This document shows, in pieces, positions 1,668 through 44,929 of a stretch of DNA of 64,000 nt (its first letter is position 1; each line of letters starts with the position of its first letter). The position numbers and the translations under genes are program-made. Origin of the DNA: an uncultured Verrucomicrobia subdivision 3 bacterium (GTDB taxonomy: Bacteria; Verrucomicrobiota; Verrucomicrobiia; Limisphaerales; UBA11358); NCBI GenBank assembly GCA_903835255.1, contig CAILMI010000026.1, positions 2,740 to 66,739 of the forward strand, given 5' to 3'. A model generated the notes under the pieces. The model was not told the origin of the DNA. It did not search any database and worked only from the letters and a program-made list of their open reading frames with translations.

Positions 1668-2787
1668 GGCGTTTCCGGGATGGGGAGGTCTGGTGGCCGC
1701 CGGTATTTTTTTTAAGCACCGCTGCGAGCAGGGTTCGGGTCGGCCGGTTTAACTTCAACTTTTTCGCCGCCGCCAGCGTCACCCAGCGGAACGCCTGCGC
1801 CTCGTGATTGAGCGTCACCTCCGACCGGCCGACAACGCGGCAGGTATAATTCAGGAGGATAAAATGGGCGTCGCGGTAAAACTCTTTCGAACGGACGCAA
1901 TCCTGCGCCAGCACAAATTGAATGTCCGCCACCTTGAGTCCGGTCTCCTCACGGATCTCGCGGCGCAAGGCAGCTGGGGAGGTTTCGCCCCACTGAATCT
2001 TGCCGCCGGGGATGCCCCACTTGTCGGACCATTTATGCGTTTTGACCATCAGCACTTCGCCGGCGCGGTTGAATATCAACCCCCCCACCGTCGGGATGGG
2101 GAGGCCCGGAGCGGCCGTTTTTTGACGGGAACTCCGGCGGTCCACCGCCGCTCCAAAATCCAGATCGCCCTCCTCCAAAGCCCGGCGCAATTCTCCCAAA
2201 TGCTCAACGATCAGGCCGGGCCGGGCGGCGCGAAGCTGCGCCAGCGTGTTGTAACCGGTCAGCACGGCGCAGGAATGCACCCCGCCATGGTGCGCGGTCT
2301 CGATGTCATGCTCCATGTCGCCGATAAACAGCGTCTGCTCGGGCCGGAGATTATTTTCGGCGAGCAGGTCGCGGATTTTTTTGCGCTTATCCCAGACATC
2401 GGTGTAGGGGCGGTCGAGATACGCGCCGAAGCCGGTGACGCGGGACTGCACGGCAAAGTGGTCGGAGTGAATGGTGCTCAGAAGAAACGTGCGCAGTTTT
2501 CGGGTCCGGCAGAACTGGAGAAACTCGCGGGCATGCGGTAGTTCCACCACCGTGTGCTGCGCCTCCTTGAACCGGCTGTGAAACCATGCTTCCAGCTGCG
2601 GCATCGGCACGTCCGGCGTGTGCCGGTCATAAAAGCCGGTGAAGGGCAGACTGAACTCGGCCCGGAATTGATCGAGAGACATCGCCGCCTTGCCCGCCTG
2701 GGCCAAAACATAATTGGAGGCTTCCAAGACCGCAGGCAGGTCGTCCACCAAGGTCCCCGACCAGTCGAAGATGATGTTTCGGATCAC
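1660..2787 (-). CDS. HAD-family phosphatase fused to a NUDIX hydrolase
   Basis: HAD motifs FDWSGTLVDD and FIGDMEHD; Nudix box GGKIQWGETSPAALRREIREETGL; overlaps folB start by 8 bp. Confidence 0.85.
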   Translation of the reverse strand: MIRNIIFDWSGTLVDDLPAVLEASNYVLAQAGKAAMSLDQFRAEFSLPFTGFYDRHTPDVPMPQLEAWFHSRFKEAQHTVVELPHAREFLQFCRTRKLRTFLLSTIHSDHFAVQSRVTGFGAYLDRPYTDVWDKRKKIRDLLAENNLRPEQTLFIGDMEHDIETAHHGGVHSCAVLTGYNTLAQLRAARPGLIVEHLGELRRALEEGDLDFGAAVDRRSSRQKTAAPGLPIPTVGGLIFNRAGEVLMVKTHKWSDKWGIPGGKIQWGETSPAALRREIREETGLKVADIQFVLAQDCVRSKEFYRDAHFILLNYTCRVVGRSEVTLNHEAQAFRWVTLAAAKKLKLNRPTRTLLAAVLKKNTGGHQTSPSRKRHV

Positions 2788-2873
2788 GCAATAATTTTAA
2801 CCATGAAACCTATGAAACACACGAAAAGTTTTACGCACTTGAAACTTGAAACCTGACACTGGAAACTGACCTC

Positions 2874-3527
2874 ATGCTCATCGCCTTCCACAAACCGTTC
2901 GGCGTCCTGTCGCAATTCACCGGGGACGGCTCGCCGAACCGCGCGCTGGCGGAATTCCGCTTTCCCGCCAATGTCTATCCCATTGGGCGGCTGGATGCGG
3001 ACTCCGAGGGATTGCTGCTGCTGAGCGACGAGCCGGCCTGGAACGAGCGGCTGCTGCACCCGCGCCACGCGCATGCCCGCGAGTACTGGGCGCAGGTGGA
3101 GCGGATCCCGACGCGCGAGGCACTGGATGCCCTGCAGCGCGGCTTGGTGATTCAAGGCCGCAAAACCCTGCCCTGTCGCGCCTGGATCTTGGAGCCGCAG
3201 CCACTAGTCGGACCTGCCACTCCCTGCGCGCCATCCTCCGCCCGCCAGAGCGCTGCAATTGATGACGTCGCGCACGGAGTGATGCATCCTACCTTGCCGC
3301 CGCGCAATCCGCCCATCCGCTTCCGCAAGAACGTGCCGGACTGCTGGATCGGCCTGGAACTGATTGAGGGCAAGAACCGGCAGGTGCGGCGGATGACCGC
3401 GGCCATCGGGCACCCGACGCTGCGGCTGATCCGGGCGCGGGTGGGCGGATTGCAACTGGGAGATTTGGCCGCGGGCGAATGGAAGATCCTATCCGAGGCG
3501 GAACGCGCGCGGGCGGCGCAGGATTAA
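2874..3527 (+). CDS. rluE: rRNA pseudouridine synthase (RsuA/RluE family) with an in-frame insertion
   Basis: GRLDADSEGLLLL catalytic motif, EGKNRQVRRMTAAIGHPTLRLIR. Confidence 0.85.
   Translation: MLIAFHKPFGVLSQFTGDGSPNRALAEFRFPANVYPIGRLDADSEGLLLLSDEPAWNERLLHPRHAHAREYWAQVERIPTREALDALQRGLVIQGRKTLPCRAWILEPQPLVGPATPCAPSSARQSAAIDDVAHGVMHPTLPPRNPPIRFRKNVPDCWIGLELIEGKNRQVRRMTAAIGHPTLRLIRARVGGLQLGDLAAGEWKILSEAERARAAQD
3207..3293. repeat. REP-like imperfect palindrome inserted in frame in the pseudouridine synthase gene
   Basis: 24-bp arms at 3207-3230 and 3269-3292 match 17/24 as inverted repeats; 87 nt = 29 codons. Confidence 0.7.
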
Positions 3528-3581
3528 TTATTCACACGCGCGCTTGCATTGCGCGGCTTGGAATTTAAACTCCGCGCGCCC

Positions 3582-5624
3582 ATGGCCAACTTGAGCTCAC
3601 TGAATCCGCAACAACGCCAGGCCGCTGAGACCCTTCACGGCCCGATTTTGATCCTGGCCGGGGCGGGCACCGGCAAGACGCGCGTCATCACCTACCGCAT
3701 CGCGCACCTCATCGACCAGGGCGTCCCGCCGGAGAACATCCTGGCCGTCACCTTCACGAACAAGGCCGCGCGCGAGATGCAGGAGCGCATCCACAAGCTG
3801 CTGCCGCACCTGAAGGCCCGGAAGCGCGACGGGGAACCGCCCAAGCGCCCGACCCTGTGCACGTTCCATTCCCTGTGCGTCCGCATCTTGCGCGCCCACA
3901 TCGAGGCTCTCGGCTACAAGCGCAACTTCGTCATCTACGACGAATCCGAGCAGCTCGCGGCCGTGAAAAAAATTCTGAGCAGCATCTCGGCCAAGGGCGA
4001 AAAGACCGACCCCGGGGCTATTCTCGCCCTGCTGAGCAAGTTCAAGAACGGGGGCGAGGCCTCGGCGGCGTTCGCGGACCCCAGCGTGCGCGCGCTGGCC
4101 CAGCACATCCGCACGCGCTACGAATCCGCCCTGCGCGCCTGCAACGCCGTGGATTTCGACGACCTGATCCTGCTGACGCTGCGGCTGTTCAATGAATTCC
4201 CCGACGTGCTGGAAGTCTGCCGCGCCAAATACCGCTATGTCATGGCGGACGAGTATCAGGACACCAACGGCTCGCAGTTCCAGCTGATCCACGCGCTGAC
4301 GCTGAAGCATCGCAACCTCTGCGTGGTGGGCGACGACGACCAGAGCATTTACGGCTGGCGCGGCGCGGAGATCGCCAACCTGCTGGACCTGGAAAAACAT
4401 TACCCCGAGGTGAAGATCGTCAAGCTCGAGCAGAACTACCGCTCGACCAACACAATCCTGACGGCCGCCAACGCGCTGATCAAAAACAACACGCGCCGCC
4501 GTGCCAAGCAGCTGTGGTCGCAAAAGGGCCAGGGAACGAAGATCCTGCTGCGCGCCTGCAGCAACGAGGAGGAGGAGGCCACCGAGCTGGTGGGGCAGAT
4601 TGAATTCGCCCGGCTGGCGCACCGCATTTCGTGGAAGGAGAATGCGATCCTGTTCCGCACCAACATCCAGTCGCGGCCGATTGAAACGGCGCTGCGCAAG
4701 GCGGGCGTGCGCTATCACCTGATCGGCGGGCAAAGCTTTTTCGACCGGCGCGAGATCCGGGATTTCCTCGCCTATCTCAAGATGTTCATCAACCCGCACG
4801 ACGACATCAGCCTCCTGCGGATCGCCAACACCCCCGCCCGGGGGCTGAGCGACGTGACGATGGAGCGGCTGCTGGCCGCCAGCCAGGAACGTCAGTGCTC
4901 GGTGTTCGCCGCCATGAAAAACCCGCTGGTGCAGTCGAGCTTCCAGAAGCGGACGCAGGAATGCCTTGCGACGTTCGTGGAGTTTGTGGAGCGCACGCGG
5001 GCGACCCTGGCCGACCCGGCCGCCCAGCACGAGCCCAAGGTCTTGCAGGCCTGGGCGGATCATTTTCTCGACGAGTCCGGCTACCTGCATGAACTGCGCC
5101 GCCAGGAAAAGGAAGCCGAAGCCGGCGAAGCCCGCGTCCGCAATCTGCGCGACCTGACCGCCACGCTGGATGGCAGCGATGCCGTCGGCAAGGCGCTGTT
5201 CGAGCGGCTGGAGGCATTCCTCGAGAACATCACGCTCGACTCCGACCGGGAAGAGGAGGAGGAAAAAGGCGACGTCGTCACGCTCATCACCATGCACAGC
5301 TGCAAGGGACTGGAGTTTCCGCGCGTGTACATCGTCGGGCTGGAGGACGGGCTGCTGCCGCACACGCGCTCGACGGTTGAAGGCACGCTGGACGAGGAGC
5401 GGCGGCTGTTCTACGTGGCCGTCACGCGGGCGATGCTGTCGCTCACCATCAGCCATTGTGCGAGCCGGAAGAAATACGGACAACTGCTGCCCTGCCACCC
5501 CTCCCGTTTTCTCAAGGAACTGCCCCTGGAACTCGTGGAGCAAGCCGAGGAAAGGGAGCAGAAGCCGGTGAGCGCGGCGGTTGGAAAAAGCCTGTTTGAT
5601 GCCATGCGGGAAGCCATGGAGTGA
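3582..5624 (+). CDS. ATP-dependent DNA helicase, Rep/UvrD/PcrA family
   Basis: Walker A AGAGTGKT, DEYQD, VVGDDDQSIY, QNYRS, TMHSCKGLEF, EERRLFYVAVTRA; ATG 3582 preferred over TTG 3549. Confidence 0.95.
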   Translation: MANLSSLNPQQRQAAETLHGPILILAGAGTGKTRVITYRIAHLIDQGVPPENILAVTFTNKAAREMQERIHKLLPHLKARKRDGEPPKRPTLCTFHSLCVRILRAHIEALGYKRNFVIYDESEQLAAVKKILSSISAKGEKTDPGAILALLSKFKNGGEASAAFADPSVRALAQHIRTRYESALRACNAVDFDDLILLTLRLFNEFPDVLEVCRAKYRYVMADEYQDTNGSQFQLIHALTLKHRNLCVVGDDDQSIYGWRGAEIANLLDLEKHYPEVKIVKLEQNYRSTNTILTAANALIKNNTRRRAKQLWSQKGQGTKILLRACSNEEEEATELVGQIEFARLAHRISWKENAILFRTNIQSRPIETALRKAGVRYHLIGGQSFFDRREIRDFLAYLKMFINPHDDISLLRIANTPARGLSDVTMERLLAASQERQCSVFAAMKNPLVQSSFQKRTQECLATFVEFVERTRATLADPAAQHEPKVLQAWADHFLDESGYLHELRRQEKEAEAGEARVRNLRDLTATLDGSDAVGKALFERLEAFLENITLDSDREEEEEKGDVVTLITMHSCKGLEFPRVYIVGLEDGLLPHTRSTVEGTLDEERRLFYVAVTRAMLSLTISHCASRKKYGQLLPCHPSRFLKELPLELVEQAEEREQKPVSAAVGKSLFDAMREAME

Positions 5625-5649
5625 CCCGCCTGCACGGGCTGGGGGACGA

Positions 5650-6618
5650 CTAGGGGCGGGCGCACAGAAAGACCCCCTCCTCACCTGAGGGCGTGACCCA
5701 TTCCTGGAGAACGGAAAGCCCGTGGCGGCCGAGCGCCTGACGGACTCGGCTGGGCGTGTAACGGTAGGAGAAAAAGAGGCGGATGACTTCACCGCGACGG
5801 AATTCAAACGACTTGGATTCAATCTGAAAGCGGCGACGGCGATGGAAGCGGAACCGCGCCACGACCCGCTTGAGCCCCGAGCCGCCCGTCTCTACTCCCA
5901 TCTCCAGCGTGCCGTCACTGCGCTCCACCCCCAGGTCGAGCAGGAAAGTCAGCAGCCAGTCGCGCGTGAGCGCATTGTCGTACTGCGGGAGAATTTTCGC
6001 CATCCCGGCGGCGTCATCCCCGCCCGGTGCCAGATTCGCGCTGAACAATAAAAAATCCCGGGGGCGGACCAGCGCTGACAGCTTGGACAAAATGGCTGAC
6101 GGCTCGAAATTGGGAATCATGCCGAAGAAAGTCACCAGAGTGGGCTGACGGGAAAGAAGGGCGGCAGGCAAATCCTCCGCCGTGGCCAGATCGCACACGA
6201 AGGGAAAACAGCTTTTGTCCGGCAGCACGGCGAGCGCGGCCTGGCGGGCGACCAGGACCATGGCGGTGCTGACGTCGCAGGGCGTGTAAGAAACCCCCTT
6301 GCCGGCGGCCTTCAATAATTTCAGAAGGCGCGTGTCCTTTTGTCCCCCGCCGCAGCCCAGGCCGAGCACGTGGACGCGGCGGGCCGTGAGATGACGCGCC
6401 GCCTGCTCAAAGGCGAGGTCATAGGTGGCCGCGCACGACGCGTCGTTGCGGGAGGGGGAATAGGCCTGGTGCAATGCGAGCCATTGCTGCGTTTGCCGAG
6501 GGCTGTCGTAGTGAAACTTGTGATTCACCCGCCGCGTGCGCAGCGAGACAAGCAGATCGCGCCGGACGTTTTCAGGAAACTGGCTGTCGTGGATTGTGAC
6601 GCGCGCGGGGGATTTCAT
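5650..6618 (-). CDS. SAM-dependent methyltransferase, EgtD (histidine N-methyltransferase)-like, divergent
   Basis: HKFHYDS resembles EgtD PKYFYD; SAM motif VLGLGCGGGQKD; C-terminal FFSYRYT. Confidence 0.65.
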   Translation of the reverse strand: MKSPARVTIHDSQFPENVRRDLLVSLRTRRVNHKFHYDSPRQTQQWLALHQAYSPSRNDASCAATYDLAFEQAARHLTARRVHVLGLGCGGGQKDTRLLKLLKAAGKGVSYTPCDVSTAMVLVARQAALAVLPDKSCFPFVCDLATAEDLPAALLSRQPTLVTFFGMIPNFEPSAILSKLSALVRPRDFLLFSANLAPGGDDAAGMAKILPQYDNALTRDWLLTFLLDLGVERSDGTLEMGVETGGSGLKRVVARFRFHRRRRFQIESKSFEFRRGEVIRLFFSYRYTPSRVRQALGRHGLSVLQEWVTPSGEEGVFLCARP

Positions 6619-6625
6619 GCGCGGC

Positions 6626-7707: not shown

Positions 7708-7737
7708 GGACGTTAGGGGGGCGCCGGCGCGGGCGGC

Positions 7738-8945: not shown

Positions 8946-9263
8946 TCAGTGCATCTGGGTGCCGACCGGGAAATCGCCCATGGCCCAGAGGGTCAGACCC
9001 ATCAGGACGGCGAAAAAAAACACCGTGAAGGCCAGCAGGGCGTAGATCATTTTCTTCTCGGACAGCAAATGCATGAGGAAGCCGGCGACGACGAAGGCGT
9101 TGACGCAGGCCACGGCGAGGATGAGGGCGACCTTGGCCGGCCACCCATAATGCGGCAGGAAGGAGATGCCGATCATCAGCGCCGTGGTGCACACCACGGC
9201 GATGAAAACATAGACACAGCGCCGGACGTACGCGGAATACTCCACAGGATGGGATTCGCTCAT
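8946..9263 (-). CDS. ctaF: Cytochrome c oxidase subunit IV family protein
   Basis: Three TM helices, FLMHL motif, position after subunit III. Confidence 0.75.
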   Translation of the reverse strand: MSESHPVEYSAYVRRCVYVFIAVVCTTALMIGISFLPHYGWPAKVALILAVACVNAFVVAGFLMHLLSEKKMIYALLAFTVFFFAVLMGLTLWAMGDFPVGTQMH

Positions 9264-12923: not shown

Positions 12924-13975
12924 TTCATTGACGGGACCCCTGAAAAGGCCCCCACCCCGAACCCGCCGGAAGCTTGAACAGCCGAATCCGACGTGAAACG
13001 TCTAAAAGCAATAAGGCACGCCACGGCGCCTGTCACGAGCGAAAGCGCTCCCACCAGGACATGCCCGGTGGCCACGTCTGCCGCCTTGTTCGTCCAAATG
13101 GTCGCCGCCCCCAGCCCGACCTGCACCCCCATCAGCACCAACCAGAACAGGGTGAACCGGCTCAGGACATCCCCGCCCCCCCGCTGACGCCGCGACAGCA
13201 CAGCGCAGGCGGCTGTCAGAAACACAATGACCAGCGCCATGGCGCGATGCACCATCTGCAGCTGGATTTGAAAGGCGGTGACGGGAGCCTCCTCGGTGAC
13301 GGAAACGCGGCGGCTATTGTAAAGGGCGACGGCATCGGGGCTAGTGTCCGGCCATACTTTTCCGTAGGCCAGAGGGAAATCAGGAATGGCCAGCCCGGCG
13401 TGCTGATGCCGCATCGTCGCCGCAATAATTAATTGGGCGAAAATGATCAGCGTCGTGCAGAGCAGAAGGGTTTTTAGGCCGCTCGAAACAGAGGGAAGGG
13501 TTCCCCCTCTGATCCAAAAACGGCTGGTAAACAGTGTGATGGCGCAGAGCAGAACAAAAAACACCTGCGCCACGGTGGCGTGAAAGATTCCCAGCGAATC
13601 CATGTGCAATGTCACGCGCAGTCCGCCAAGGATGCCTTGCGCGATAACGCCGAGGAAAGCGGCCACACCAAGCCAGCGGAGCCAGCGCCGGGAATCCGAC
13701 ATCCAAATCCAAACGGCCAGCACCGTCGTGAGCAGGCCCACGGCCGAGGCCAGCAACCGGTGGGTGTGCTCATAGAAAATGCCGCCGACCCACTGTGAAA
13801 TCGGGAAGGTGAACATGTTGTAACCATACGTATTGGGCCAGTCCGGCACCGACATGCCCACGCCATAACTGGTCACCAAGCCGCCCAAACCCACCAATAA
13901 AAACGTGGTAAAGGCTGTAATCCCTGCAAACCGGAACATCCAGGGACGAATTATTGGGGGACTTGTTTTACTCAT
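12920..13975 (-). CDS. ctaA: Heme A synthase (COX15/CtaA)
   Basis: GMSVPDWP, EHTHR, QGILGG, HATVA, QMVHR. Confidence 0.9.
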   Translation of the reverse strand: MSKTSPPIIRPWMFRFAGITAFTTFLLVGLGGLVTSYGVGMSVPDWPNTYGYNMFTFPISQWVGGIFYEHTHRLLASAVGLLTTVLAVWIWMSDSRRWLRWLGVAAFLGVIAQGILGGLRVTLHMDSLGIFHATVAQVFFVLLCAITLFTSRFWIRGGTLPSVSSGLKTLLLCTTLIIFAQLIIAATMRHQHAGLAIPDFPLAYGKVWPDTSPDAVALYNSRRVSVTEEAPVTAFQIQLQMVHRAMALVIVFLTAACAVLSRRQRGGGDVLSRFTLFWLVLMGVQVGLGAATIWTNKAADVATGHVLVGALSLVTGAVACLIAFRRFTSDSAVQASGGFGVGAFSGVPSMK

Positions 13976-14746: not shown

Positions 14747-15098
14747 AATTTCGTCGCCAAATTTAGCACCCTGAAACACCGGGTCAAGTTCTTCGTGAAT
14801 TTTTTCACAAGCGCCCCCGGAAAAACCTCCGCGCGCGCCCCCGCTGGCTGTTCTCAGGGCCCGAATCCACCTCGCAGGAACCTGAAAAAGCGGCCGAAGA
14901 CCGGTTTCGCCCCTGCAGCAGTTTTGAATGACGCCGCCGGCCAACCAGTTCTGGCAGGACGCCCTCCACCACCCTGCCGCCCGCAACACTCGCTACCCTC
15001 GCGGCAAAGCGATGAGGAATTGCATGTCTTGCGCCCTTCGACGATTGAATACCATTTCCGCTTTGGCTCGCGCGGCGTTAGTTGCTAGTTTCAAGCCG

Positions 15099-16727
15099 AT
15101 GCCGGACATCGTCCTCACTACCCTCAACGCCAAGTACAGCCATGCCGCGTTCGGACTGCGCTACCTGTACGCCAACCTCGGCGAGCTGCAGCCCCGCGCC
15201 GTCATCGCCGAATTTGACATCAACCTGCGCCCGCTCGATATCGCCGAGGCCCTGCTCGCACGCGAACCGCGCATCCTCGGCTTCGGCATCTACATCTGGA
15301 ACGTCGCGCAGACCACCGAGGTCATCGCCGCCCTCCGGCGCGTCCGGCCGGAAATCCTCATCATCCTCGGCGGCCCGGAAGTCAGCTACGAGACGGAGGG
15401 GCAGAAAATCGTGGAACTGGCCGACCACGTCATCACCGGCGAGGCGGACCTGAAATTTGCCGAGGTGTGCGAACAGTTGCTTTTGCCGGGGCGCAGATCC
15501 TCTCCAGCTTTGACTGAAAATCCCGGCTCAGTGGAAACCCGACCTGCCGCTGGCTTGCCAAAAATCATCGCCGCCGGTGTGCCAGACGTCTCGCGCCTCG
15601 CCCTGCCCTACGATTTTTACACGGAAGCGGATCTGGCGCATCGCATCGTGTACGTGGAGGCGTCGCGGGGCTGCCCTTTCACCTGTGAATTCTGCCTGTC
15701 GTCGCTCGACATCCCCGTGCGCCAGGTCCCGCTGGAGCCGTTTCTGGACGCGATGCAGCGCCTGCTGGACCGGGGATTAAAGCAGTTCAAGTTCGTGGAC
15801 CGCACCTTCAACCTGAACATCGCCACCAGCAAGGCGCTCCTGAAATTCTTCCTGGCGCGCCATCAGCCTGGGATGTTCTTCCATTTTGAGATGATCCCCG
15901 ACCGCCTGCCCGCCGAGCTGCGCACCGTGATCGCCCAGTTCCCCCCCGGATCGCTGCAGTTCGAGGTGGGAATCCAGACGTTCAATCCGGCGGTCGGCGC
16001 GCTCATCAGCCGCCGCCAGAATTACGAGCGGCTCGCGGACAATTTCCATTTCCTGCGGAACGAAACGCGCGTCCACATCCATGCGGACCTGATCGTGGGA
16101 CTGCCCGGGGAAACGCTGGAAAGCTTTGGCGCCGGGTTCGACCGGCTCCTCGCGCTCGGCCCGCAGGAAATCCAGGTCGGGATCCTGAAACGGCTGAGGG
16201 GCACGCCCATCATCCGGCACGACGCGGAGTGGCAGATGGTTTACGGCGCCCCTCCGCCCTACGAGATTTTGCAGAATAAGCTGCTCGATTTCGCCACACT
16301 GCAGCGGCTGCGCCGCTTCGCAAAATACTGGGACCTGATCGGCAACAGCGGCAACTTCGTGGCCGTCGCCCCGCTGATCTGGGCCGCCGCGGGACCCGGC
16401 GCCCGGCAGGCCCCGGGAGACGAGAAGGCGCCGCCACCGTCGCCGTTTCAGGCCTTCCTCCGGCTCAGCGACTGGCTTCATGCCCGGCTCGGGCGCACCG
16501 ACAGCATCGCGCTGGCGCGGCTGATGGAAGGGCTATTTGAATTCCTCACCCGCGAACGGGGGCACGATTCCGGCCGGGTGATCGAAGCTTTCCGGGAAGA
16601 CGGGCGGCGGACCGGCCGGCGCGAGACCCCCGCCTTCCTGAAGGAATCCGGGACGGCCGATAGGGCCGATGTCCGCGTCCGCGACCGGTCGCTGCCCAAA
16701 CGCCAGGCACGGCATTGGGCGCCATGA
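15099..16727 (+). CDS. B12-binding radical SAM protein (DUF4080-type C-terminus)
   Basis: LNAKYSH, ILGGPEVSYE, SRGCPFTCEFCLS (CxxxCxxC), FVDRTFN; ATG 15099 follows a -10 box. Confidence 0.85.
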   Translation: MPDIVLTTLNAKYSHAAFGLRYLYANLGELQPRAVIAEFDINLRPLDIAEALLAREPRILGFGIYIWNVAQTTEVIAALRRVRPEILIILGGPEVSYETEGQKIVELADHVITGEADLKFAEVCEQLLLPGRRSSPALTENPGSVETRPAAGLPKIIAAGVPDVSRLALPYDFYTEADLAHRIVYVEASRGCPFTCEFCLSSLDIPVRQVPLEPFLDAMQRLLDRGLKQFKFVDRTFNLNIATSKALLKFFLARHQPGMFFHFEMIPDRLPAELRTVIAQFPPGSLQFEVGIQTFNPAVGALISRRQNYERLADNFHFLRNETRVHIHADLIVGLPGETLESFGAGFDRLLALGPQEIQVGILKRLRGTPIIRHDAEWQMVYGAPPPYEILQNKLLDFATLQRLRRFAKYWDLIGNSGNFVAVAPLIWAAAGPGARQAPGDEKAPPPSPFQAFLRLSDWLHARLGRTDSIALARLMEGLFEFLTRERGHDSGRVIEAFREDGRRTGRRETPAFLKESGTADRADVRVRDRSLPKRQARHWAP

Positions 16728-16795
16728 GAGGCGGGAGACGGGAGAATCCCGCTATGCAAGATTGCGCTGCGCTGATTTCCTATTAATCTGCGCCC

Positions 16796-17779
16796 ATGAA
16801 ATATCGCACTCTGGGCCGGACCGGCTGGAAGGTCTCTGAGATCAGTTTCGGCGGCTGGGCCATCGGCGGCGGCTGGGGCGACGTGAGCGACGCCGAATCG
16901 ATGGGCGCGCTCCACGCGGCACTCGACGGCGGCGTGAACTTTTTTGACACGGCAGACTGCTATGGCGACGGCCGCAGCGAACGGCTGCTGGCGAAACTGC
17001 GCAGGGAACGGAAGGAGAATTTTTACATCGCCACCAAAGCCGGTCGCCGGCTCAACCCGCACGTGGCCGACGGCTACAACCGCAAGAACCTCACCGCCTT
17101 CGTTAACCGCAGCCTGAAGAACCTGAACACCGACGCGCTCGACCTTCTGCAATTGCACTGTCCGCCGACGGAAGTTTTTTACCGCCCGGAAGTGTTCGGC
17201 GTCCTAGACGACCTCGTGAAAGCCGGCAAGGTGCAGCATTACGGGGTGAGCGTGGAAAAAGTCGAAGAGGCGCTAAAAGCCATCGAGTACCCAGAGGTGA
17301 AAACGGTGCAGATCATCTTCAATCTATTCCGGCAGCGCCCGTCGGAGCTGTTCTTCGGAGAGGCGCAACGGCGGAAGGTCGGCATCCTCGCGCGCGTGCC
17401 GCTGGCCTCAGGCCTGCTGTCGGGCAAACTGAATCGCGCGAGCCGGTTCGCGGCGGATGACCATCGCCGCTACAACCGGCACGGCGAAGCGTTCGACCGC
17501 GGGGAAACCTTCGCCGGCGTGGACTACGACACGGGCCTGCGCGCGGTCAGGGCGTTGCGCCCGCTGGTACCGCCGGGCGCGACGCTGGCGCAACTGGCCC
17601 TGCGCTGGATCCTAGAATTCCCGGCGGTGACCTGCGCAATCCCCGGCGGCAAGCGCCCGGCGCAGGTGACGGACAACCTCGCCGCATCGGACCTGCCGCA
17701 TCTGTCCGCCGGCACGCTCCGGAAAATCCGCGCGATCTATGAGGCGGAGATTCGCCCGCTGGTCCAGCATTACTGGTGA
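16796..17779 (+). CDS. Aldo/keto reductase
   Basis: LGRTGWKVSEISFG, FDTADCYG, ATKAG, LLQLH, ARVPLASGLL. Confidence 0.92.
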   Translation: MKYRTLGRTGWKVSEISFGGWAIGGGWGDVSDAESMGALHAALDGGVNFFDTADCYGDGRSERLLAKLRRERKENFYIATKAGRRLNPHVADGYNRKNLTAFVNRSLKNLNTDALDLLQLHCPPTEVFYRPEVFGVLDDLVKAGKVQHYGVSVEKVEEALKAIEYPEVKTVQIIFNLFRQRPSELFFGEAQRRKVGILARVPLASGLLSGKLNRASRFAADDHRRYNRHGEAFDRGETFAGVDYDTGLRAVRALRPLVPPGATLAQLALRWILEFPAVTCAIPGGKRPAQVTDNLAASDLPHLSAGTLRKIRAIYEAEIRPLVQHYW

Positions 17780-17860
17780 GATCGCGCCGGGCGGCACAGA
17801 GCCCTGAGCGGACGTCAAAGCCCCTTGCTCCCCTGCCCGGGTTGCGTTAATTTGCGCCCC

Positions 17861-19009
17861 ATGGAATCCTCTTTTTCCACACCCGGCGCCCCGCCGCCGC
17901 TGATCACTCCGCCGCCCGTCATCACCCCGCCGCCCTCGTCCCGGCCGCGCCGGCGCCGGGGCTGGATGATTGCCGCCCTCGTTTTAATCCTGCTGCTGGG
18001 GTTCAGCCTGCTCGGCAACCTCTCGCAGTTCGTTTCCCACACGCTGAGCGGCGGCTTGAGCCGCAGCCTGAAGAACAGTGCGGCGCACGAGTCCGGCCCG
18101 CGGCTAGAGGAGGTCGTGCTGGAGGATAACGGATCGCACTACAAGATCGCGGTCATCTCAGTGGACGGGATTATCACCCGCCGTGGTGCCGATGCGGGAG
18201 GACACGACATGGTGGAGGTGATCAAGGCCCAGCTCGACCGGGCGCGGGAGGACAATCGGGTCAAAGCCGTGATCCTGAAAGTGGATTCGCCCGGGGGCGA
18301 GGTGATGGCCTCGGACGACATCAGCAAAGCCATCGCCTATTTCCAAGCGGACACGAAGAAGCCGGTGATCTGCTCGATGGGCAGCCTTGCGGCGAGCGGC
18401 GGCTATTACATTTCGGCCCCCTGCCGCTGGATTGTGGCCAACGACCTGACCATTACCGGGAGCATCGGAGTGATCATGCACGGCTATAACTTCCGGGGAC
18501 TGATGGATAAGGTCGGGGTGGCCCCGATGACCTATAAGAGCGGCAAGTACAAAGACATGCTGAGCCCTGACCGCAGCACCAACGATATCCCGCCGGAGGA
18601 ACACGCCATGGTGCAGGCGTTGATTGACGAAACCTTTCAGAAGTTCAAGGGCGTGGTGCGCGCGGGACGGGCGGCCGCCCACGAGAAAAATAAGGCGGAA
18701 GGCAGGGCCCTGGCCGCCAACTGGGAGGATTCCGCCGACGGACGCGTGCTGTCCGGCACCCAGGCGCTCACGCTCGGCTTCGTGGACCAGGTGGGCGATT
18801 TCGACGACGCGGTGGATCGCACGGAAAAGATTGCGCGCCTGACTAACGCGAATCTGATCGAATACCGCGAACACTATGACCTGTCAGATTTTCTCTCCCT
18901 GTTCAGCCAGAGCGGCGCGGCCTCCTCGGTGAAAATCGACCTCGGCCTCGACATTCCCAAGCTCCGGGCGGGATGCATGTATTTCCTCTGGCAGACGCCG
19001 GAAAACTGA
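17861..19009 (+). CDS. sppA: Signal peptide peptidase SppA (peptidase S49)
   Basis: VDSPGG, AASGGYY, TGSIGV, SGKYKD; N-terminal TM. Confidence 0.92.
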   Translation: MESSFSTPGAPPPLITPPPVITPPPSSRPRRRRGWMIAALVLILLLGFSLLGNLSQFVSHTLSGGLSRSLKNSAAHESGPRLEEVVLEDNGSHYKIAVISVDGIITRRGADAGGHDMVEVIKAQLDRAREDNRVKAVILKVDSPGGEVMASDDISKAIAYFQADTKKPVICSMGSLAASGGYYISAPCRWIVANDLTITGSIGVIMHGYNFRGLMDKVGVAPMTYKSGKYKDMLSPDRSTNDIPPEEHAMVQALIDETFQKFKGVVRAGRAAAHEKNKAEGRALAANWEDSADGRVLSGTQALTLGFVDQVGDFDDAVDRTEKIARLTNANLIEYREHYDLSDFLSLFSQSGAASSVKIDLGLDIPKLRAGCMYFLWQTPEN

Positions 19010-21391: not shown

Positions 21392-21443
21392 AGGCCCATA
21401 CTGAAGGGTTTCCAACCGCGCGCAGACCGCTATACTGCAGCCA

Positions 21444-22136
21444 ATGTATTGGCTGCAACTATCCGACACCCGCCTATTCCTGTTCGTCAACCGGTCCCTG
21501 GTCAATCCGTTCTTTGACTGGCTCATGCCGGTGTTGAGCGGCGGCCCGGGATTAAAAAACGCTCTGATTGCCTTATCCATAGCGGCGGGCCTCGCCCTGC
21601 TCGCCTTCGGCAACCGGCGCGCCCGGCTCTGCGTGCTGCTCCTGACTTTGGTGATGGCCACCAACGACGGACTGGTCTGTAAAACCCTGAAACACGCCAT
21701 TGCCCGGCCACGCCCGTTCGTCACCCTGCCGGAGGCGCGCCTCTTCGGCACTATCGGAAAAGGCTATCGCCCCCCCGGATCCGCCGCACCAAACGCGGGC
21801 GCACCGGCACGCCCCGCCAACCACAACAGCATGCCGTCCTCACACGCCGCCAACTGGTTCGCCGCCGCCATGGTGCTGTTCCTGTTCTATCGCAAAAGCG
21901 CGAGGCTCATGCTACCGCTGGCCGCCGCCGTCGCCTTCTCGCGCGTCTACAACGGCGTCCATTATCCGGCCGACGTTCTCGCCGGCGCACTGATCGGCGC
22001 CGGCTATGCCGCCGCCGTCGCCGTCGTCCTGGAAACAGCCTGGCAGTTTTTCGGAGCGAAATGGCTTCCCCGCTGGCACGCCCGGGTGCCCTCGCTGGTG
22101 CCGGATTTGAAATCGCTGGATCCCCGGAACCGCTGA
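21444..22136 (+). CDS. PAP2-family membrane phosphatase
   Basis: K..IARPRP, SMPSSH, SRVYNGVHYPADV. Confidence 0.9.
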   Translation: MYWLQLSDTRLFLFVNRSLVNPFFDWLMPVLSGGPGLKNALIALSIAAGLALLAFGNRRARLCVLLLTLVMATNDGLVCKTLKHAIARPRPFVTLPEARLFGTIGKGYRPPGSAAPNAGAPARPANHNSMPSSHAANWFAAAMVLFLFYRKSARLMLPLAAAVAFSRVYNGVHYPADVLAGALIGAGYAAAVAVVLETAWQFFGAKWLPRWHARVPSLVPDLKSLDPRNR

Positions 22137-23868: not shown

Positions 23869-24720
23869 TCAGACCACGAACTCCAGTTCCTGCCGGTGGG
23901 GAAGGAGACCGCGCTCGAAGGCTTGACCGAGGAAACGGCGGATGGATTCCCTGCCCCGCTCCCCGTAATCGAGCGTCCAGTGGTTCACATACATCCCCAC
24001 GAATTTGTCCGCTAGGTCGAGCCCCATATCGCGGGCGTATTGCAGCGCGTGCTGCACCGCCTCCGGGCGATGGTCCAGGCTGTATTGGATGCTCGCCGTG
24101 AGCGTGTCGGAAATCTGCTTGCGCGTGGCGGGGGCGAATCGCTTGTGAATGACATTGCCGCCGAGCGGCAGCGGCAGGCCGTCGTTTTCGCGCCCCCACC
24201 AGACCCCGAGATCCTCGCACAGCACCAGCCCCTCATTGCGGTAAGTCAATTGCCCCTCGTGGATGATCAGCCCGATCTCGGCCGTCCCATTTTTCACGGC
24301 GGCAAAGATCTGGTCGAACGGAACGACCACATAATTAATTTCCTTGGCCGGCTTACCAAGCCAGAGCTGCAGCGCCAGGAACGCGCTGGTCATGGTGCCG
24401 GGCACGGCGATTTTCTTCTTCGCAATTTCTTCGCGGGAAAAATTCCGCTTCGCCACCAGCATCGGGCCGTAGCCGTCGCCCATGCTCGCGCCGCTGGGCA
24501 GCAGCGCGTATTGGTCGGAGACATAAGCGTAGGCGTGGATGCTGACGGCGGAAATATCCAGCTCGCCCCGGGTGGCGCGTTCGTTGAGCGTCTGAATATC
24601 CTGCAAGATGTGCTCGAACTCAAAGCCGTGGGAGGGGATCAGCCCCTTGGCGAGGGCGTAAAACATGAAGGCGTCATCCGGATCAGGCGAATGGCCGAGG
24701 GTCAAGGTCGTTGGCGACAT
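23869..24720 (-). CDS. mqnD: 1,4-dihydroxy-6-naphthoate synthase (futalosine menaquinone pathway)
   Basis: GHSPDPDDAFMFY, IHEGQLTY, PLPLG, MYVN; ATG 24720. Confidence 0.9.
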   Translation of the reverse strand: MSPTTLTLGHSPDPDDAFMFYALAKGLIPSHGFEFEHILQDIQTLNERATRGELDISAVSIHAYAYVSDQYALLPSGASMGDGYGPMLVAKRNFSREEIAKKKIAVPGTMTSAFLALQLWLGKPAKEINYVVVPFDQIFAAVKNGTAEIGLIIHEGQLTYRNEGLVLCEDLGVWWGRENDGLPLPLGGNVIHKRFAPATRKQISDTLTASIQYSLDHRPEAVQHALQYARDMGLDLADKFVGMYVNHWTLDYGERGRESIRRFLGQAFERGLLPHRQELEFVV

Positions 24721-24834
24721 GGCTGGAAAAATAAACCACGGCGGACGCCCTGTCACGACGAGAAGCGGGGACGGACCGATCCGGTTCACCGAAGTTATTT
24801 GAGACCGCGCCGGCCGACGGCTATCTTGTCGCGC

Positions 24835-25161
24835 ATGAAATCCGCCGCACATACCGCCCTGGTCCTGGTCACCGCGCCGGACCTAAAGACCGCCCGGAGC
24901 CTGGCCGGGAAGGCGCTCCAGGCGCGCCTAATCGCCTGCGCCACACTGGTACCGAGGGTCGAATCACATTACCTGTGGCGGGGGAAGCGGACCTCGGCTG
25001 CAGAGGTGCTTCTCCTCCTCAAGACCCGGAAAACGAAACTGGCCGCGCTGGAAAAACTGGTGCTCGCCGCGCATCCCTACGACACCCCGGAGTTCCTGGT
25101 TTTGACCCTGACAGCCGGTACGCCGAAGTATCTCGACTGGCTGGCGGCCAGCTGCCCCTGA
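24835..25161 (+). CDS. cutA: Divalent-cation tolerance protein CutA
   Basis: C-terminal part of the 24040 ORF: LIACAT, SHYLWRG, HPYDTPE; promoter TTGAGA-17-TATCTT directly upstream. Confidence 0.88.
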   Translation: MKSAAHTALVLVTAPDLKTARSLAGKALQARLIACATLVPRVESHYLWRGKRTSAAEVLLLLKTRKTKLAALEKLVLAAHPYDTPEFLVLTLTAGTPKYLDWLAASCP

Positions 25162-38134: not shown

Positions 38135-38148
38135 AGTATTTATTCAGG

Positions 38149-38508: not shown

Positions 38509-38544
38509 TTGAATGCGTCACGGATCTGGCCGTGACTAAAATTA

Positions 38545-39081: not shown

Positions 39082-39093
39082 AACTTGAATAAA

Positions 39094-39480: not shown

Positions 39481-39485
39481 AAAAA

Positions 39486-39755: not shown

Positions 39756-39759
39756 AAAA

Positions 39760-40302: not shown

Positions 40303-40337
40303 TTTTAGTCGCCACGGATTTGGCCGTGGCAGTTAGT

Positions 40338-40613: not shown

Positions 40614-40620
40614 ATAATCC

Positions 40621-40986
40621 TTAGAGAACTTCCGGCGCGAGCGAGATGATCTTCATGAACTTCTTCTCACGCAGCTCGCGCGCCACCGGGCCGAAAATGC
40701 GCGTGCCCTTGGGATTCAATTCCTTGTCGATAATCACGCAGGCGTTGCGGTCAAAACGCAGGTAGGAGCCGTCGGCCCGGGGAATGATCTGGCGCGTCCG
40801 GACGACCACCGCGTCATGAACTTCGCCCTTCTTCACCGTGCCATCCGGCGCGGCGACCTTGACGTGAACCTTGATGACGTCGCCGATACCGGCGTAGCGC
40901 TGGTTGCGGCCCAGCACCCCGATGTTCCAAACAATCTTGGCACCGGTGTTGTCCGCCACATCCAAACTGGAACGAATTTGCAACAT
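40621..40986 (-). CDS. rplN: 50S ribosomal protein L14
   Basis: [27 protein letters not shown]. Confidence 0.98.
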
Positions 40987-40995
40987 AAAATCTTA

Positions 40996-41298
40996 TTAAG
41001 CCGACGCCGGGGTCGCCTGCACCGCGCGGTCCACGACTTCGACCAGCCGCCAACATTTGGTTTTGGACAGCGGACGGGTCTCCTCGATCCGCACGCGATC
41101 GCCCACCTTGGCCTCGTTTTTCTCGTCGTGGGCGTAGAGCTTCTTGTAGGCGGTCACAATCTTCTTATATTGAGCGTGGGGGAAACGGCGCTCCACTTTG
41201 ACGACGATGGTCTTGGCCATCTTGTTAGAGACGACTTCGCCCACGCGTTCCTTGCGGTTGCCGCGTTTCGCTTCCGGTTGTTTTACAGTTTCAGCCAT
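40996..41298 (-). CDS. rpsQ: 30S ribosomal protein S17
   Basis: [20 protein letters not shown]; ATG 41298. Confidence 0.96.
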
Positions 41299-41305
41299 AC
41301 AAAAA

Positions 41306-41503
41306 TTAAACCGTGGGTTTGCGCAACTGGGACATCCGCGTTTCGATGCGGGCGATGTCCTTGCGGAGAGTCCGCAGACGGGCGGGCTTCTCAAGTTGCG
41401 CGCTGGCCTGCTGCAGGCGCAGGGTGAACATTTCGTGGCGCAGATCACGGCCCTTGGCCGCCAGCTCCACCAGCGTCATATCTTTGGATTCAGCAAATTT
41501 CAT
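41306..41503 (-). CDS. rpmC: 50S ribosomal protein L29
   Basis: [10 protein letters not shown]; position between rplP and rpsQ. Confidence 0.92.
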
Positions 41504-41509
41504 ATCCGT

Positions 41510-41932
41510 TTAGCTCGCGTGATGATGCCGCGACACAAATTTTGTTTTGATTGGCAGCTTGGTGGCCGCCAGGCGCATGGACTCGCGCGCAATCGCCTCC
41601 GTCACGCCGTCCACCTCGAACAGGACGTTCGCCGGACGAATGACCGCCACCCAGCCCTCGACGGGCGCTTTGCCCTTGCCCATTCGGGTCTCGAGAGGCT
41701 TCTTGGTAAAGGATTTCTGGGGGAACACCCGGATCCAGAGCTTGCCGTGCCGCTTCATGTTGCGGGCGATAGCCACGCGGGCGGCCTCAATCTGCTTGGC
41801 ATCCATCCAGCACCGTTCCAGCGCCATCAATCCGTATTCGCCAAACGCCACCGTATGACCGCGCGTCGCCAGACCCGTGCGGCTGCCACGGTGCATCTTG
41901 CGGAACTTCACTCTTGCTGGTTGCATTGCCAT
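41510..41932 (-). CDS. rplP: 50S ribosomal protein L16
   Basis: [20 protein letters not shown]. Confidence 0.98.
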
Positions 41933-41949
41933 AACAAAAAATATCTAAA

Positions 41950-42630
41950 TCAGTTCACCGGGAGGGGTTTTTCAACCGGAGCCTGGGGGGCCGCGGCCTT
42001 CTGGGGCTTGTTTTCACCCTTGCAGATCCAGCACTTCACACCCAGCTTGCCGTACATGGTCAGAGCCTCGGCGAAACCGTAATCAATATTCGCACGCAGG
42101 GTGTGCAGGGGCACCCGGCCCCAGTGGTACATCTCGGTACGGGCAATTTCCGCGCCGCCCAGACGACCTGCGCAGCGGATCTTGATTCCCTCCGCGCCGA
42201 AATCCCGGGCGGTCTGAAGGGCTTTTTTCATTGCCCGGCGGAATGACACCCGGCGCTCCATTTGCAGCGCGATATTTTCGGCGACCAGCTGGGCATCCAG
42301 CTCAGGGGTCTTGACCTCGACGATGTCCACGTAAACTTCCTTGCCGGTCAACTTGCTCAAGTCTTCTTTGAGCTTGTCAATTTCGGAACCTTTGCGGCCG
42401 ATGACCACGCCGGGGCGGGCGGTCATGATAGTGACGCGGCAGCGGCTGGTGGCGCGCTCGATCAAAACCTTGGGCACCGAGGCGCCCTCCAACTTCTTCT
42501 TTAGAAAGTCGCGGATCTTGCGGTCTTCCGTCAGCAGGCCGCCAAAATCTTTTTTGTTGGCATACCACTTCGAGCGCCAGTCCTTGTTGACACCGACGCG
42601 CAAGCCGATTGGATTAACTTTTTGTCCCAT
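41950..42630 (-). CDS. rpsC: 30S ribosomal protein S3
   Basis: [31 protein letters not shown]. Confidence 0.98.
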
Positions 42631-42635
42631 ACCAA

Positions 42636-42968
42636 TTATTCGTCGGAAACCGTGATTTTAATGTGGCAACGGCGCTTAAGGATCGGACCGGCCGAGCCGC
42701 GCGCTTTGGGCGTGAAACGCTTGAGGGTGGTTGCGGTTCCGGCCACCGCCTCCTTCACGCGCAATGTTTCCGGCTTCAAATTCTTGTTGTTCTCGGCATT
42801 GGCAATCGCCGAGCGCAGGACCTTGGACACCAGGCGCGCCCCCTTGCGCGGCACGATCTGCAGCACTGCCATCGCCTCCAGCGCGCCCAGACCCTGCACC
42901 TGACGGACCACCTCGCGCATCTTCTGCGCGGACATGGGCACGTTTTTTAAAATTGCAAAAGCTTCCAT
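42636..42968 (-). CDS. rplV: 50S ribosomal protein L22
   Basis: SAQKMR, SAIANA, ARGSA; ATG 42968. Confidence 0.95.
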
Positions 42969-42981
42969 AAAAACGATTGGA

Positions 42982-43263
42982 CTATTTGGCCTCCGCCTTG
43001 GCCGTGTGCGCGCCGTGTTTCTTGAAGGTGCGCGTGAGCGAAAATTCACCCAGCTTGTGGCCCACCATGTTTTCGGTGACGAACACCGGGTTGAAAATCT
43101 TGCCGTTGTGAACGGTGAAGGTCAGGCCGATGAATTCCGGCGTGATGGTTGAGCGCCGCGACCAGGTCTTGATCGGGGTCTTCTGATTGGTCGCCTTAGC
43201 CTTCTGGATTTTGTCCAGCAGGCTGAAATCCACAAACGGACCCTTTTTAATCGAACGTCCCAT
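42982..43263 (-). CDS. rpsS: 30S ribosomal protein S19
   Basis: [22 protein letters not shown]. Confidence 0.98.
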
Positions 43264-43269
43264 AAAAAA

Positions 43270-44124
43270 TTATTTGTTTTTCATCGGCAAACCGTTTCTC
43301 TGAACCACGATGAAGCGGTTTGAGGATTTATATTTGGCGCGCGTCTTGCCGCCCTTAGCCACAAAGCCCCACGGGGACACCAGCTGCTGCCAGCCGCCGC
43401 CGCCCTTGGATTTGCCCTGACCGCCGCCATTGGGATGGTCCACCGGGTTGCGCGCCACGCCGCGGGTGATGCCGCGATGACCGCGGTGCCGGGTGCGGCC
43501 TGCCTTGCCGAGAATGACATTTTCGTGCTCCGTATTGCCGACCTGTCCGATGGTGGCATAGCACTCCTCATTGATGCGACGGATTTCGCCGGACGGGAGC
43601 CGGATCTGCGCAAAACCCTCGTCGCGCGACATCAGCGTGGCCGAACCGCCCGCCGAGCGCACCATCTGACCTCCGCGGCCCGGGGTGATCTCAATGTTGT
43701 GAATCGCCGTGGTGACCGGAATGGACTTGAGCGGCAGAGCATTGCCCACTTCCGGGGGAGCCGTGGGGCCGCTGGAGATTTTAGATCCCACCACCACCCC
43801 GACCGGGGCGATGATGTAGCGCTTGTCGCCGTCGGTATAATCCAACAGCGCCAGGCGAGCCGAACGCATCGGATCGTACTCAATGGCCGAAACCACCGAC
43901 TGAATCCCGTGCTTATTCCGCTTGAAATCCACGAGGCGGATTTTCTGCTTGTGGCCGCCGCCGATGCCGCGCGCGGTGACGCGTCCGTAATGGTTACGGC
44001 CGCCCGATTTCTTTCGCGTGACAACCAGCGACTTCTCGGGCTTCGTCTTCGTAATATCGCTGAAATCTGCGAACGTGACGTAGCGCAGAGACGGCGTTAA
44101 CGGTCTAAAAGATTTAACTGGCAT
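43270..44124 (-). CDS. rplB: 50S ribosomal protein L2
   Basis: GRNHYGRVT, EYDP.RSA, RGVARNPVDHPNGGG; ATG 44124. Confidence 0.98.
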   Translation of the reverse strand: MPVKSFRPLTPSLRYVTFADFSDITKTKPEKSLVVTRKKSGGRNHYGRVTARGIGGGHKQKIRLVDFKRNKHGIQSVVSAIEYDPMRSARLALLDYTDGDKRYIIAPVGVVVGSKISSGPTAPPEVGNALPLKSIPVTTAIHNIEITPGRGGQMVRSAGGSATLMSRDEGFAQIRLPSGEIRRINEECYATIGQVGNTEHENVILGKAGRTRHRGHRGITRGVARNPVDHPNGGGQGKSKGGGGWQQLVSPWGFVAKGGKTRAKYKSSNRFIVVQRNGLPMKNK

Positions 44125-44247
44125 AAATAATATCCAAGTTAGCAACTCTTGGGAGCCGGCGAGCCATTATTCCTGTCCCCGTGAGGGATCAGTTGTCGGT
44201 TCACCATACTTGCTAACCTCTGCATTTTTAGGCGCAAAGGAAAAATG

Positions 44248-44295
44248 AATCTATCAAATGTAAAACGGGATGCAATCCTTTTTTTTATTTTTTTT
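44248..44295 (-). promoter_or_regulatory. Sigma-70 promoter for rplB: UP-like A tract, -35 TTGCAT, 16 bp, extended -10 TG-A-TAGATT
   Basis: On the minus strand: -35 at 44275-44270, -10 at 44253-44248, A-rich tract at 44279-44295. Confidence 0.6.
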
Positions 44296-44548
44296 AGGGC
44301 GGGTTAAAATACACAGTTTACCCGACGTGGCAGGAGTGCGGTGCGCGGCATGCGGCAGAATTGAATCTCCCTAGTAGGCCGCGGGCGGTCGCCGCTCTCA
44401 ACCGCCGGCCAGCTGCGGCGGGCGGATGTCGTTTCGGTTCAGCCAACCGCGTCCCCCTCTTTTCCCGGAGCACTGCGGCTCGCGGTTCATTCCCTAAAGA
44501 GAAGATTATTTCGACACAAATCCCGGCGACTCTGGTACCCTTCCAGGC

Positions 44549-44929
44549 ATGAACGACATCGATCTCACGGGGTTTTCAACCGCCCAACACGAGGCGCTTT
44601 TTGATTTGCTGATCCTGGCCATGTACGCCGACGGGCACCTTTCCTCGCCGGAAGAAGAACGCCTGCAGGAATTGTTGGCGCGCGGGGGATTCGCCGAGGA
44701 GGCGGACCGGCAGCGGCAATGGGATGCCGCCGTGACGCGAATCCGGCCTGGGATTCAATCGATTCAGAAAGCCAAGGAAATGGCCATGGGATTGGCGGGG
44801 GCGTTCACCGACCGCTCCCAGCAAAAACAGGTGCTCGTCGCAGTGGAGCAGATTATGACTTCCGACAACAACCTCAGCACCTGGGAGACCACCCTGCTAT
44901 CGGAACTGCGCTTGAAATTCAGAAGGTGA
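44549..44929 (+). CDS. TerB-like (tellurite resistance family) protein
   Basis: LAMYADGHLSSPEEE ... ADxxL-like C-terminus (MTSDNNLSTWE); extended -10 TGG-TACCCT 7 nt before ATG. Confidence 0.7.
   Translation: MNDIDLTGFSTAQHEALFDLLILAMYADGHLSSPEEERLQELLARGGFAEEADRQRQWDAAVTRIRPGIQSIQKAKEMAMGLAGAFTDRSQQKQVLVAVEQIMTSDNNLSTWETTLLSELRLKFRR

Follow-up and report, generated by a model that had tools for sequence, protein, structure and literature searches.

A recurrent -10 hexamer next to start codons suggests leaderless transcripts for a minority of genes in a Verrucomicrobia subdivision 3 bacterium

Introduction

A -10 hexamer of the form TANNNT, placed 6–8 nt before operon-first genes, is the textbook signature of leaderless mRNAs (Zheng et al. 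2011, PMC3160421; Lomsadze et al. 2018, PMC6028130). MetaGeneMark-2 gives a mean leaderless-promoter spacer of 6 nt, with the same TANNNT (bioRxiv 10.1101/2022.07.25.500264). We report on this arrangement in a stretch of 64,000 nt (hereafter the window) from an uncultured Verrucomicrobia subdivision 3 bacterium (assembly GCA_903835255.1, contig CAILMI010000026.1, positions 2740–66739), in the rest of its genome and across its phylum. An earlier note on the window had listed eight genes with TANNNT 6–7 nt before the start codon, and had proposed that leaderless mRNAs are widespread in this organism.

Leaderless transcription is best described in other phyla. In group C of the GeneMarkS-2 classification, which contains mostly Actinobacteria and Deinococcus-Thermus, 25–50% of operons are predicted to be leaderless (PMC6028130), and in Deinococcus deserti 47–60% of mRNAs were measured as leaderless (PMC4007540). 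The main text of the GeneMarkS-2 paper (PMC6028130) makes no mention of Verrucomicrobia or of the PVC (Planctomycetes–Verrucomicrobia–Chlamydiae) group. Within the phylum, Cappable-seq on mouse caecum placed 10% of 886 transcription start sites (TSS) of Akkermansia muciniphila on annotated start codons, versus 0.4% in E. coli (Ettwiller et al. 2016, PMC4782308). Shine–Dalgarno (SD) motifs are reported to be scarce in Akkermansia and in Verrucomicrobiales generally (PMC10783764, PMC10798248). The ribosomes of Flavobacterium sequester the anti-SD sequence, a point that is listed as open for Verrucomicrobiales (PMC10798248).

On the basis of the comparisons below, we consider leaderless mRNAs to be the best reading of the promoters that lie 6 nt before start codons, with a probability of roughly 0.85. 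These promoters would serve a substantial minority of the genes.

Position of the hexamer in the genome

The assembly that contains the window has 3.17 Mb in 70 contigs, with 59.6% GC. The nearest relatives of the SppA-like protein encoded at 17861–19009 (50–83% identity) are found in metagenome-assembled genomes (MAGs) labelled Verrucomicrobiia, Verrucomicrobia subdivision 3, Limisphaerales or Pedosphaera, which places the lineage in subdivision 3 of the Verrucomicrobiota. A gene set of 2,259 open reading frames (ORFs) was established with a self-trained codon model, starts being taken either from the longest ORF or from lists of candidates; 2,243 genes were analysed. The gap is defined here as the number of nucleotides between the end of the hexamer and the start codon.

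At gap 6, TANNNT precedes 138 of the 2,243 longest-ORF starts, about 26 being expected (P = 1.7e-53), and the other in-frame offsets carry 21–30 TANNNT each. The genome-wide enrichment upstream of starts, which the earlier note had named as a check of its reading, is thus present as a sharp peak. Gap 7 is weakly enriched, with an excess of about 25–30 among candidate starts. The two-element pattern TTG-N3-N16-18-TANNNT gives the same picture, with 71 occurrences at gap 6, 20 at gap 7 and 12–23 at gaps 8–10, over a background of about 8. Gap 7 was therefore rejected as a main class, since it forms a shoulder whose size is some one-third to one-fifth that of gap 6. The spacing of 6–7 nt first proposed holds in its first value, which is dominant in the genome; the second is this shoulder.

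A peak of this kind could arise by chance or as an artefact, either from base composition or because an in-frame TAA or TAG stop codon at -12 itself defines the start of the longest ORF. As many as 103 of the 138 gap-6 hexamers are in-frame TAA or TAG. The excess in the window alone is modest (4 TANNNT matches at longest-ORF starts versus about 1 expected, P = 0.02); 2–4 chance matches are estimated if any in-frame candidate start is allowed, and one of the eight cited sites, that of the TerB-like gene at 44549, looks like background. Several results argue against such an origin for the class. The variant TAYNNT, which cannot form a stop codon, occurs 35 times at gap 6 versus about 7.4 expected (P = 2e-13), an approximately fivefold enrichment accompanied by the same -35 signal. 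Where TA occupies -12/-11, the hexamer ends in T at its position 6 in 67% of cases at the gap-6 offset, versus about 30% elsewhere. The peak also survives when no gene calls are used (72 occurrences of the two-element pattern at gap 6 versus about 10 elsewhere, counting any ATG or GTG that opens an ORF of at least 100 codons) and when no ORF filter is applied at all (75 at gap 6 versus 7–44 at other gaps). The E. coli control is negative and orthologues conserve the arrangement (see below). As an explanation of the whole class, chance or artefact appears largely refuted by these counts, and we regard it as extremely improbable.

In the gap-6 set, 73% of the hexamers have a purine as third base and so begin with TAA or TAG; T is the third base in only 16%. 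At a spacing of 6 nt, a hexamer with TAA or TAG opens with a stop codon in frame at -12, as in three quarters of the putative leaderless promoters. Counts over candidate starts suggest that the preference for TAA/TAG hexamers is real, about 2:1, beyond ascertainment bias.

Promoter anatomy and transcription-unit context

The 138 sites of the gap-6 set share more than the hexamer. TTG is found at -35 to -33, with T at -34 in 71% of the sites, followed by a spacer of 17 nt; G occupies -14 in 44% (extended -10) and C occupies -1 in 62%. The start codons are ATG (96), GTG (36) and TTG (6), with A or G at +1 in 132 of 138, and TTG starts are depleted (P = 1e-7). The non-stop TAYNNT subset has the same anatomy, including the -35 signal. 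The distribution of the gap-6 hexamer according to the position of the upstream gene is given in table 1.

Table 1. Genes with TANNNT at gap 6, by transcription-unit context.
Upstream gene divergent: 58/666 (8.7%)
Upstream gene on the same strand, more than 100 nt away: 31/479 (6.5%)
Upstream gene on the same strand, 31–100 nt away: 37/355 (10.4%)
Upstream gene on the same strand, at most 30 nt away (operon-internal): 10/696 (1.4%)

Operon-first genes thus carry the hexamer in 126 of 1,500 cases (8.4%), versus 10 of 696 (1.4%) for operon-internal genes (odds ratio 6.3, P = 3e-12). This restriction to operon-first genes, the -35 partner and the purine at +1 point to a promoter, not to a ribosome-binding element.

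Shine–Dalgarno usage

Core SD motifs precede 9.9% of the starts in the genome, versus 11.1% of internal control codons. Positions -13 to -1 before starts are depleted in G, and A is mildly enriched from -14 to -3 at all starts. The 16S rRNA (G000:C9:72774-74326) ends in the canonical anti-SD sequence, CACCUCCUUUCU. By these measures, translation appears to be SD-independent throughout the genome, the genes outside the putative leaderless class being equally devoid of SD motifs. The earlier remark that the eight sites have no SD agrees with this: their spacers of 6–7 nt contain no GGAGG-like sequence.

In a genome that does not use SD motifs and shows mild A enrichment at all its starts, the hexamer might be a translation signal, namely a non-SD element, rich in A/U, that binds ribosomes or enhances translation on leadered mRNAs, comparable to the A-rich upstream regions of Bacteroidia. 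The motif is, however, sixfold rarer before operon-internal genes, although these also need ribosome binding. The TTG element 17 nt upstream, G at -14 and the C/purine step at -1/+1 are promoter features without a role in translation, and the depletion of TTG starts is expected of a transcription start rather than of translation. We consider this explanation highly improbable, and retain promoters giving leaderless mRNAs as the preferred reading.

Distribution across the order and the phylum

Whole genomes were scanned with the pattern TTG-N3-N16-18-TANNNT-N6-ATG, the reversed pattern serving as control (table 2).

Table 2. Matches to the pattern relative to the reversed control.
This genome: 75 versus 15, ratio 5.0
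E. coli K-12: 50 versus 84, ratio 0.6
Same order (40 genomes from 40 families): median ratio 4.1; at least 3 in 28/40, below 1.5 in 4
Other orders of the class (26 genomes): median ratio 1.75; at least 3 in 6
Other classes of the phylum (54 genomes): median ratio 2.25; at least 3 in 23

With gap 12 taken as control instead, the gap-6/gap-12 ratio is 3.0 in this genome; its median is 1.6 for the remaining orders of the class and 1.5 for the remaining classes of the phylum. The signature is order-wide, in the sense that most genomes of the order carry it, and patchy across the rest of the phylum. In one genus of another order of the same class (six genomes: G015, G030, G042, G051, G063 and G078), the gap-6 excess is consistent, at 2.4- to 6.9-fold relative to the reversed control; little excess is seen in most of the other families of that class.

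Cited starts and their promoters

The eight TANNNT hexamers of the earlier note are all present 6–7 nt before their starts. The TTGCTC (17861) and TTGAGA (24835) elements at 17 nt, and the TGn extended -10 elements at 15099 and 44549, were also correctly described. The sites are listed below; coordinates are those of the window, and each line gives the gene, its strand, the interval covering promoter and start, and the elements.

1660–2787, minus strand, HAD-NUDIX gene: promoter and start at 2785–2822; -10 TAAAAT at 2794–2799, 6-nt spacer, GTG at 2787
15099–16727, plus strand, B12-binding radical SAM gene: promoter and start at 15063–15101; -35 TTGGCT at 15063–15068, extended -10 TGC, -10 TAGTTT at 15086–15091, 7-nt spacer, ATG at 15099
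16796–17779, plus strand, aldo/keto reductase gene: promoter and start at 16762–16798; -35 TTGCGC, -10 TAATCT at 16784–16789, 6-nt spacer, ATG
17861–19009, plus strand, SppA (peptidase S49) gene: promoter and start at 17825–17863; -35 TTGCTC at 17825–17830, 17-nt spacer, -10 TAATTT at 17848–17853, 7-nt spacer, ATG
21444–22136, plus strand, PAP2 phosphatase gene: promoter and start at 21409–21446; -10 TATACT at 21431–21436, 7-nt spacer, ATG
23869–24720, minus strand, MqnA-type menaquinone biosynthesis gene: promoter and start at 24718–24756; -35 GTGACA at 24751–24756, 17-nt spacer, -10 TATTTT at 24728–24733, 7-nt spacer, ATG
24835–25161, plus strand, cutA: promoter and start at 24799–24837; -35 TTGAGA at 24799–24804, 17-nt spacer, -10 TATCTT at 24822–24827, 7-nt spacer, ATG
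44549–44929, plus strand, TerB-like gene: cited site at 44513–44551; TGG-TACCCT at 44536–44541, 7-nt spacer, ATG

Four of the cited starts (2787, 16796, 21444 and 44549) are those of the longest ORF, and the other four (15099, 17861, 24720 and 24835) are internal candidates. Taking the longest ORF gives a wrong start for at least four genes of the window, namely 14928, 17825, 24852 and 24040 instead of 15099, 17861, 24720 and 24835, respectively. Starts 14928 and 24852 would make divergent genes overlap; start 24040 would yield an ORF of 373 amino acids antisense to the MqnA-type gene and not the 108-amino-acid CutA; the TTG at 17825 is a spurious start, being part of the -35 element (TTGCTC) of the SppA promoter. 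Pfam domains begin at residues 2–15 from every one of the eight cited starts, for example at residue 2–5 for the HAD domain (2787), 8 for the B12-binding domain (15099), 6 for VitK2_biosynth (24720) and 9 for CutA1 (24835). Orthologue alignments begin at residue 1 for 15099, 16796 (9/10), 21444 and 24720; for 17861, one orthologue is aligned from residue 1 and two from residue 5. Domain starts, orthologue alignments and the overlap of the longer ORFs with divergent neighbours together support the cited starts. A gene caller that has no model of leaderless starts will make N-termini in these MAGs too long.

The upstream contexts were scored with a promoter position weight matrix (PWM) trained on sites outside this contig, each context being ranked against 6,160 random TANNNT sites. 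The sites at 15099 (99.8th percentile), 17861 (99.6th), 2787 (99.4th), 21444 (98.0th) and 16796 (96.8th) rank highest, followed by 24835 (94.7th) and 24720 (82.5th); the eighth site is discussed below.

In orthologues from other genomes, the hexamer is preserved together with its gap, and the sequence around it has diverged. Among 13 orthologues of the 2787 gene, from 13 other families of the order, the hexamer lies at gap 6 in 10, at gap 5 in one and at gap 7 in one, and is missing from one; the GTG start is retained in 11/13 and TTGCC-type -35 elements are common. TANNNT is at gap 6 in 8/10 orthologues of the 16796 gene from related MAGs, with a TTGCGT-type -35, and at gap 7 in one, the rest of the spacer having diverged. 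Of the orthologues of the 21444 gene, five (50–75% identity) carry TACACT or TACATT at gap 7, and in a further one the hexamer is TAGACT, at gap 6. Two orthologues of the 24720 gene retain GTGACA with TAATTT at gap 6. For 15099, a single orthologue (L005) has an upstream region, and this matches the window exactly in both motif and spacing.

On sequence context and conservation, six of the eight cited sites are well supported, and the promoter at 24835 moderately so. The eighth, at 44549, is probably a chance occurrence or a weak extended -10 promoter.

The MqnA-type gene and cutA are divergent and 114 nt apart, and the spacer between them contains two complete back-to-back promoters, with 7 nt between hexamer and start codon in each.

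The SppA promoter recurs in near-invariant form, TTGCYC-N17-TAGYTT-GCGCGCGYT-ATG, in about 27 related MAG loci. Their hexamer lies 9 nt before the ATG (7 nt in the window), and this GC-rich 9-nt spacer is conserved beyond the apparent need of a discriminator. The loci compared here (L002–L039) are all centred on one SppA neighbourhood, so that counts among them are not independent; matches were collapsed to gene families, and the gap-9 peak seen in the counts from these loci arises because all of them share this neighbourhood. Two of the contigs carry unexpected labels. L006 (CAZIFP010000003.1, 'uncultured Bifidobacteriaceae bacterium') encodes an SppA 76% identical to that of the present verrucomicrobium and shares neighbouring genes with it, and L029 (DATHEW010000044.1, 'Candidatus Acidoferrum sp.') encodes one 61% identical. 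Both are probably mis-binned or mislabelled MAG contigs.

One further candidate, absent from the earlier list, was found in the window:

46981–47811, minus strand, Peptidase_C26/GATase gene: promoter and start at 47809–47845; -35 CTGACA at 47840–47845, 17-nt spacer, -10 TAAATT at 47817–47822, unusual 5-nt spacer, ATG

Its context lies at the 99.8th PWM percentile, and the Peptidase_C26 domain starts at residue 6. Four other sites were rejected. The one at 9263 (minus strand, gap 8) has a context at the 96–97th percentile and was discarded since it is operon-internal. Those at 13816 (minus strand, gap 6, an internal candidate at the 3.6th percentile), 40983 (a TTG start within a ribosomal-protein operon) and 41932 (gap 5, 66th percentile) were judged to be due to chance.

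Evidence against a general and strictly leaderless class

Several observations weigh against leaderless mRNAs as a general rule or in the strict sense. Six of the eight cited sites are at gap 7, the spacing that is weakly enriched in the genome. The 9-nt gap of the SppA relatives would imply a leader of 2–3 nt and not a strictly leaderless mRNA. For cutA, the arrangement is not conserved, a gap-6 hexamer being found in 2/14 orthologues of the order. The site at 44549 is the weakest of the eight, with a context at the 56.6th percentile, a TG extended -10 only and no -35 element, and its motif is found in 0/4 orthologues. The extent of the class is also limited. The summed excess at gaps 5–8 comes to about 150–165 genes, or about 7% of the analysed set and about 10% of its approximately 1,500 operon-first genes, percentages that are approximate because the gene set is home-made. 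These shares are well below the 25–50% of operons predicted for group C bacteria and the 47–60% of mRNAs measured in Deinococcus deserti. Leaderless-type promoters would thus serve a substantial minority of genes and are not the rule; the word 'widespread' in the earlier note was an overstatement.

Some of these observations fit a variant in which the promoters are real and the transcripts are not strictly leaderless, either because they carry leaders of 1–3 nt or because the true start codon lies further downstream, the ATG at +1 being incidental. The shoulder at gaps 7–10, the SppA orthologues at gap 9 and the six cited sites at gap 7 are in its favour. It is opposed by the sharp, dominant peak at gap 6, which is the canonical distance from -10 to +1, and by the Pfam domains and orthologue alignments that begin at the cited codons. 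In addition, leaders of 0–3 nt count functionally as leaderless in the literature, where a limit of less than 8 nt has been used (PMC10783764). We regard this variant as unlikely.

Discussion

The reading of the gap-6 sites as promoters of leaderless mRNAs is based on the motif together with its exact placement and its -35 partner, on the restriction to operon-first genes, on the purine at the start and on the order-wide conservation. The mechanism would be a simple one. Ordinary housekeeping promoters of the sigma70/sigmaA type (TTGnnn-N17-TAnnnT) would place their usual start point, 7 nt past the -10 hexamer, on the first base (A or G) of the start codon. Transcripts from these promoters would lack a 5' leader, or carry one of 1–3 nt in the gap 7–9 cases, and their translation would have to rely on an AUG or GUG recognized directly at the 5' terminus, as it does in Actinobacteria, Deinococcus and, within the phylum, Akkermansia. 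Both transcription starting on the start codon and translation of the leaderless mRNA are what we infer from sequence. The proposal that the -10 box sets the transcription start on the start codon came through every sequence-based test for the class, and falls short at 44549, which has neither context nor conservation, and in part at 24835, where support is moderate.

The order may combine a genome-wide non-use of SD motifs with a conserved, strictly leaderless class of unusually rigid 6-nt spacing, stronger and more uniform (28/40 families) than in the rest of the phylum. We put this forward tentatively, as a possibility that we think is rather doubtful. If true, the order would be a Gram-negative, non-extremophile model for the co-evolution of SD-independent and leaderless initiation, one example of a route being a sequestered anti-SD tail that would also favour 70S-type initiation on a 5'-terminal AUG.

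The earlier note knew of no description of leaderless mRNAs for this lineage. The phylum does have a precedent in Akkermansia (PMC4782308); for subdivision 3 (Limisphaerales-type), our literature search found no description of a leaderless class or of SD absence. The arrangement is a known one and involves no new mechanism, so that the result is solid but unsurprising.

In comparison with group C of GeneMarkS-2, the genome has the same Pribnow box 6–8 nt before operon-first starts, the same AUG and GUG starts and internal genes without the motif. It differs in that group C combines 25–50% of leaderless operons with SD motifs at the remaining genes, whereas here the estimate is about 10% and the rest have no SD. 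By these estimates, the genome does not fit the definition of the group.

The SD-less regime of Bacteroidia and Verrucomicrobiales (McNutt et al. 2024, PMC10798248; PMC10783764) is closer in one respect, since SD motifs are likewise at or below chance with an intact anti-SD in the 16S rRNA. That regime was reported for Verrucomicrobiales, in 7/7 species, whereas the nearest relatives of the present genome are Limisphaerales-type (subdivision 3) MAGs. With both SD absence and a leaderless signature, the Verrucomicrobia should be a useful comparison group for Bacteroidia in the study of SD-independent initiation.

Akkermansia, of the same phylum, has -35 and -10 logos and a pyrimidine–purine step at -1/+1, i.e. 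the same anatomy, and its proportion of start-codon TSS matches the approximately 10% of operon-first genes estimated here. It belongs to a different order and lives in the gut, and its TSS were determined experimentally, whereas ours are deduced from sequence. The Akkermansia paper (PMC4782308) contains no gene-level or comparative analysis; in our comparison, the pattern excess is stronger in the order of the window (median ratio 4.1) than elsewhere in its class (1.75 for the other orders). The present data thus widen the one experimental record, from Akkermansia, to another order that is for the most part uncultured.

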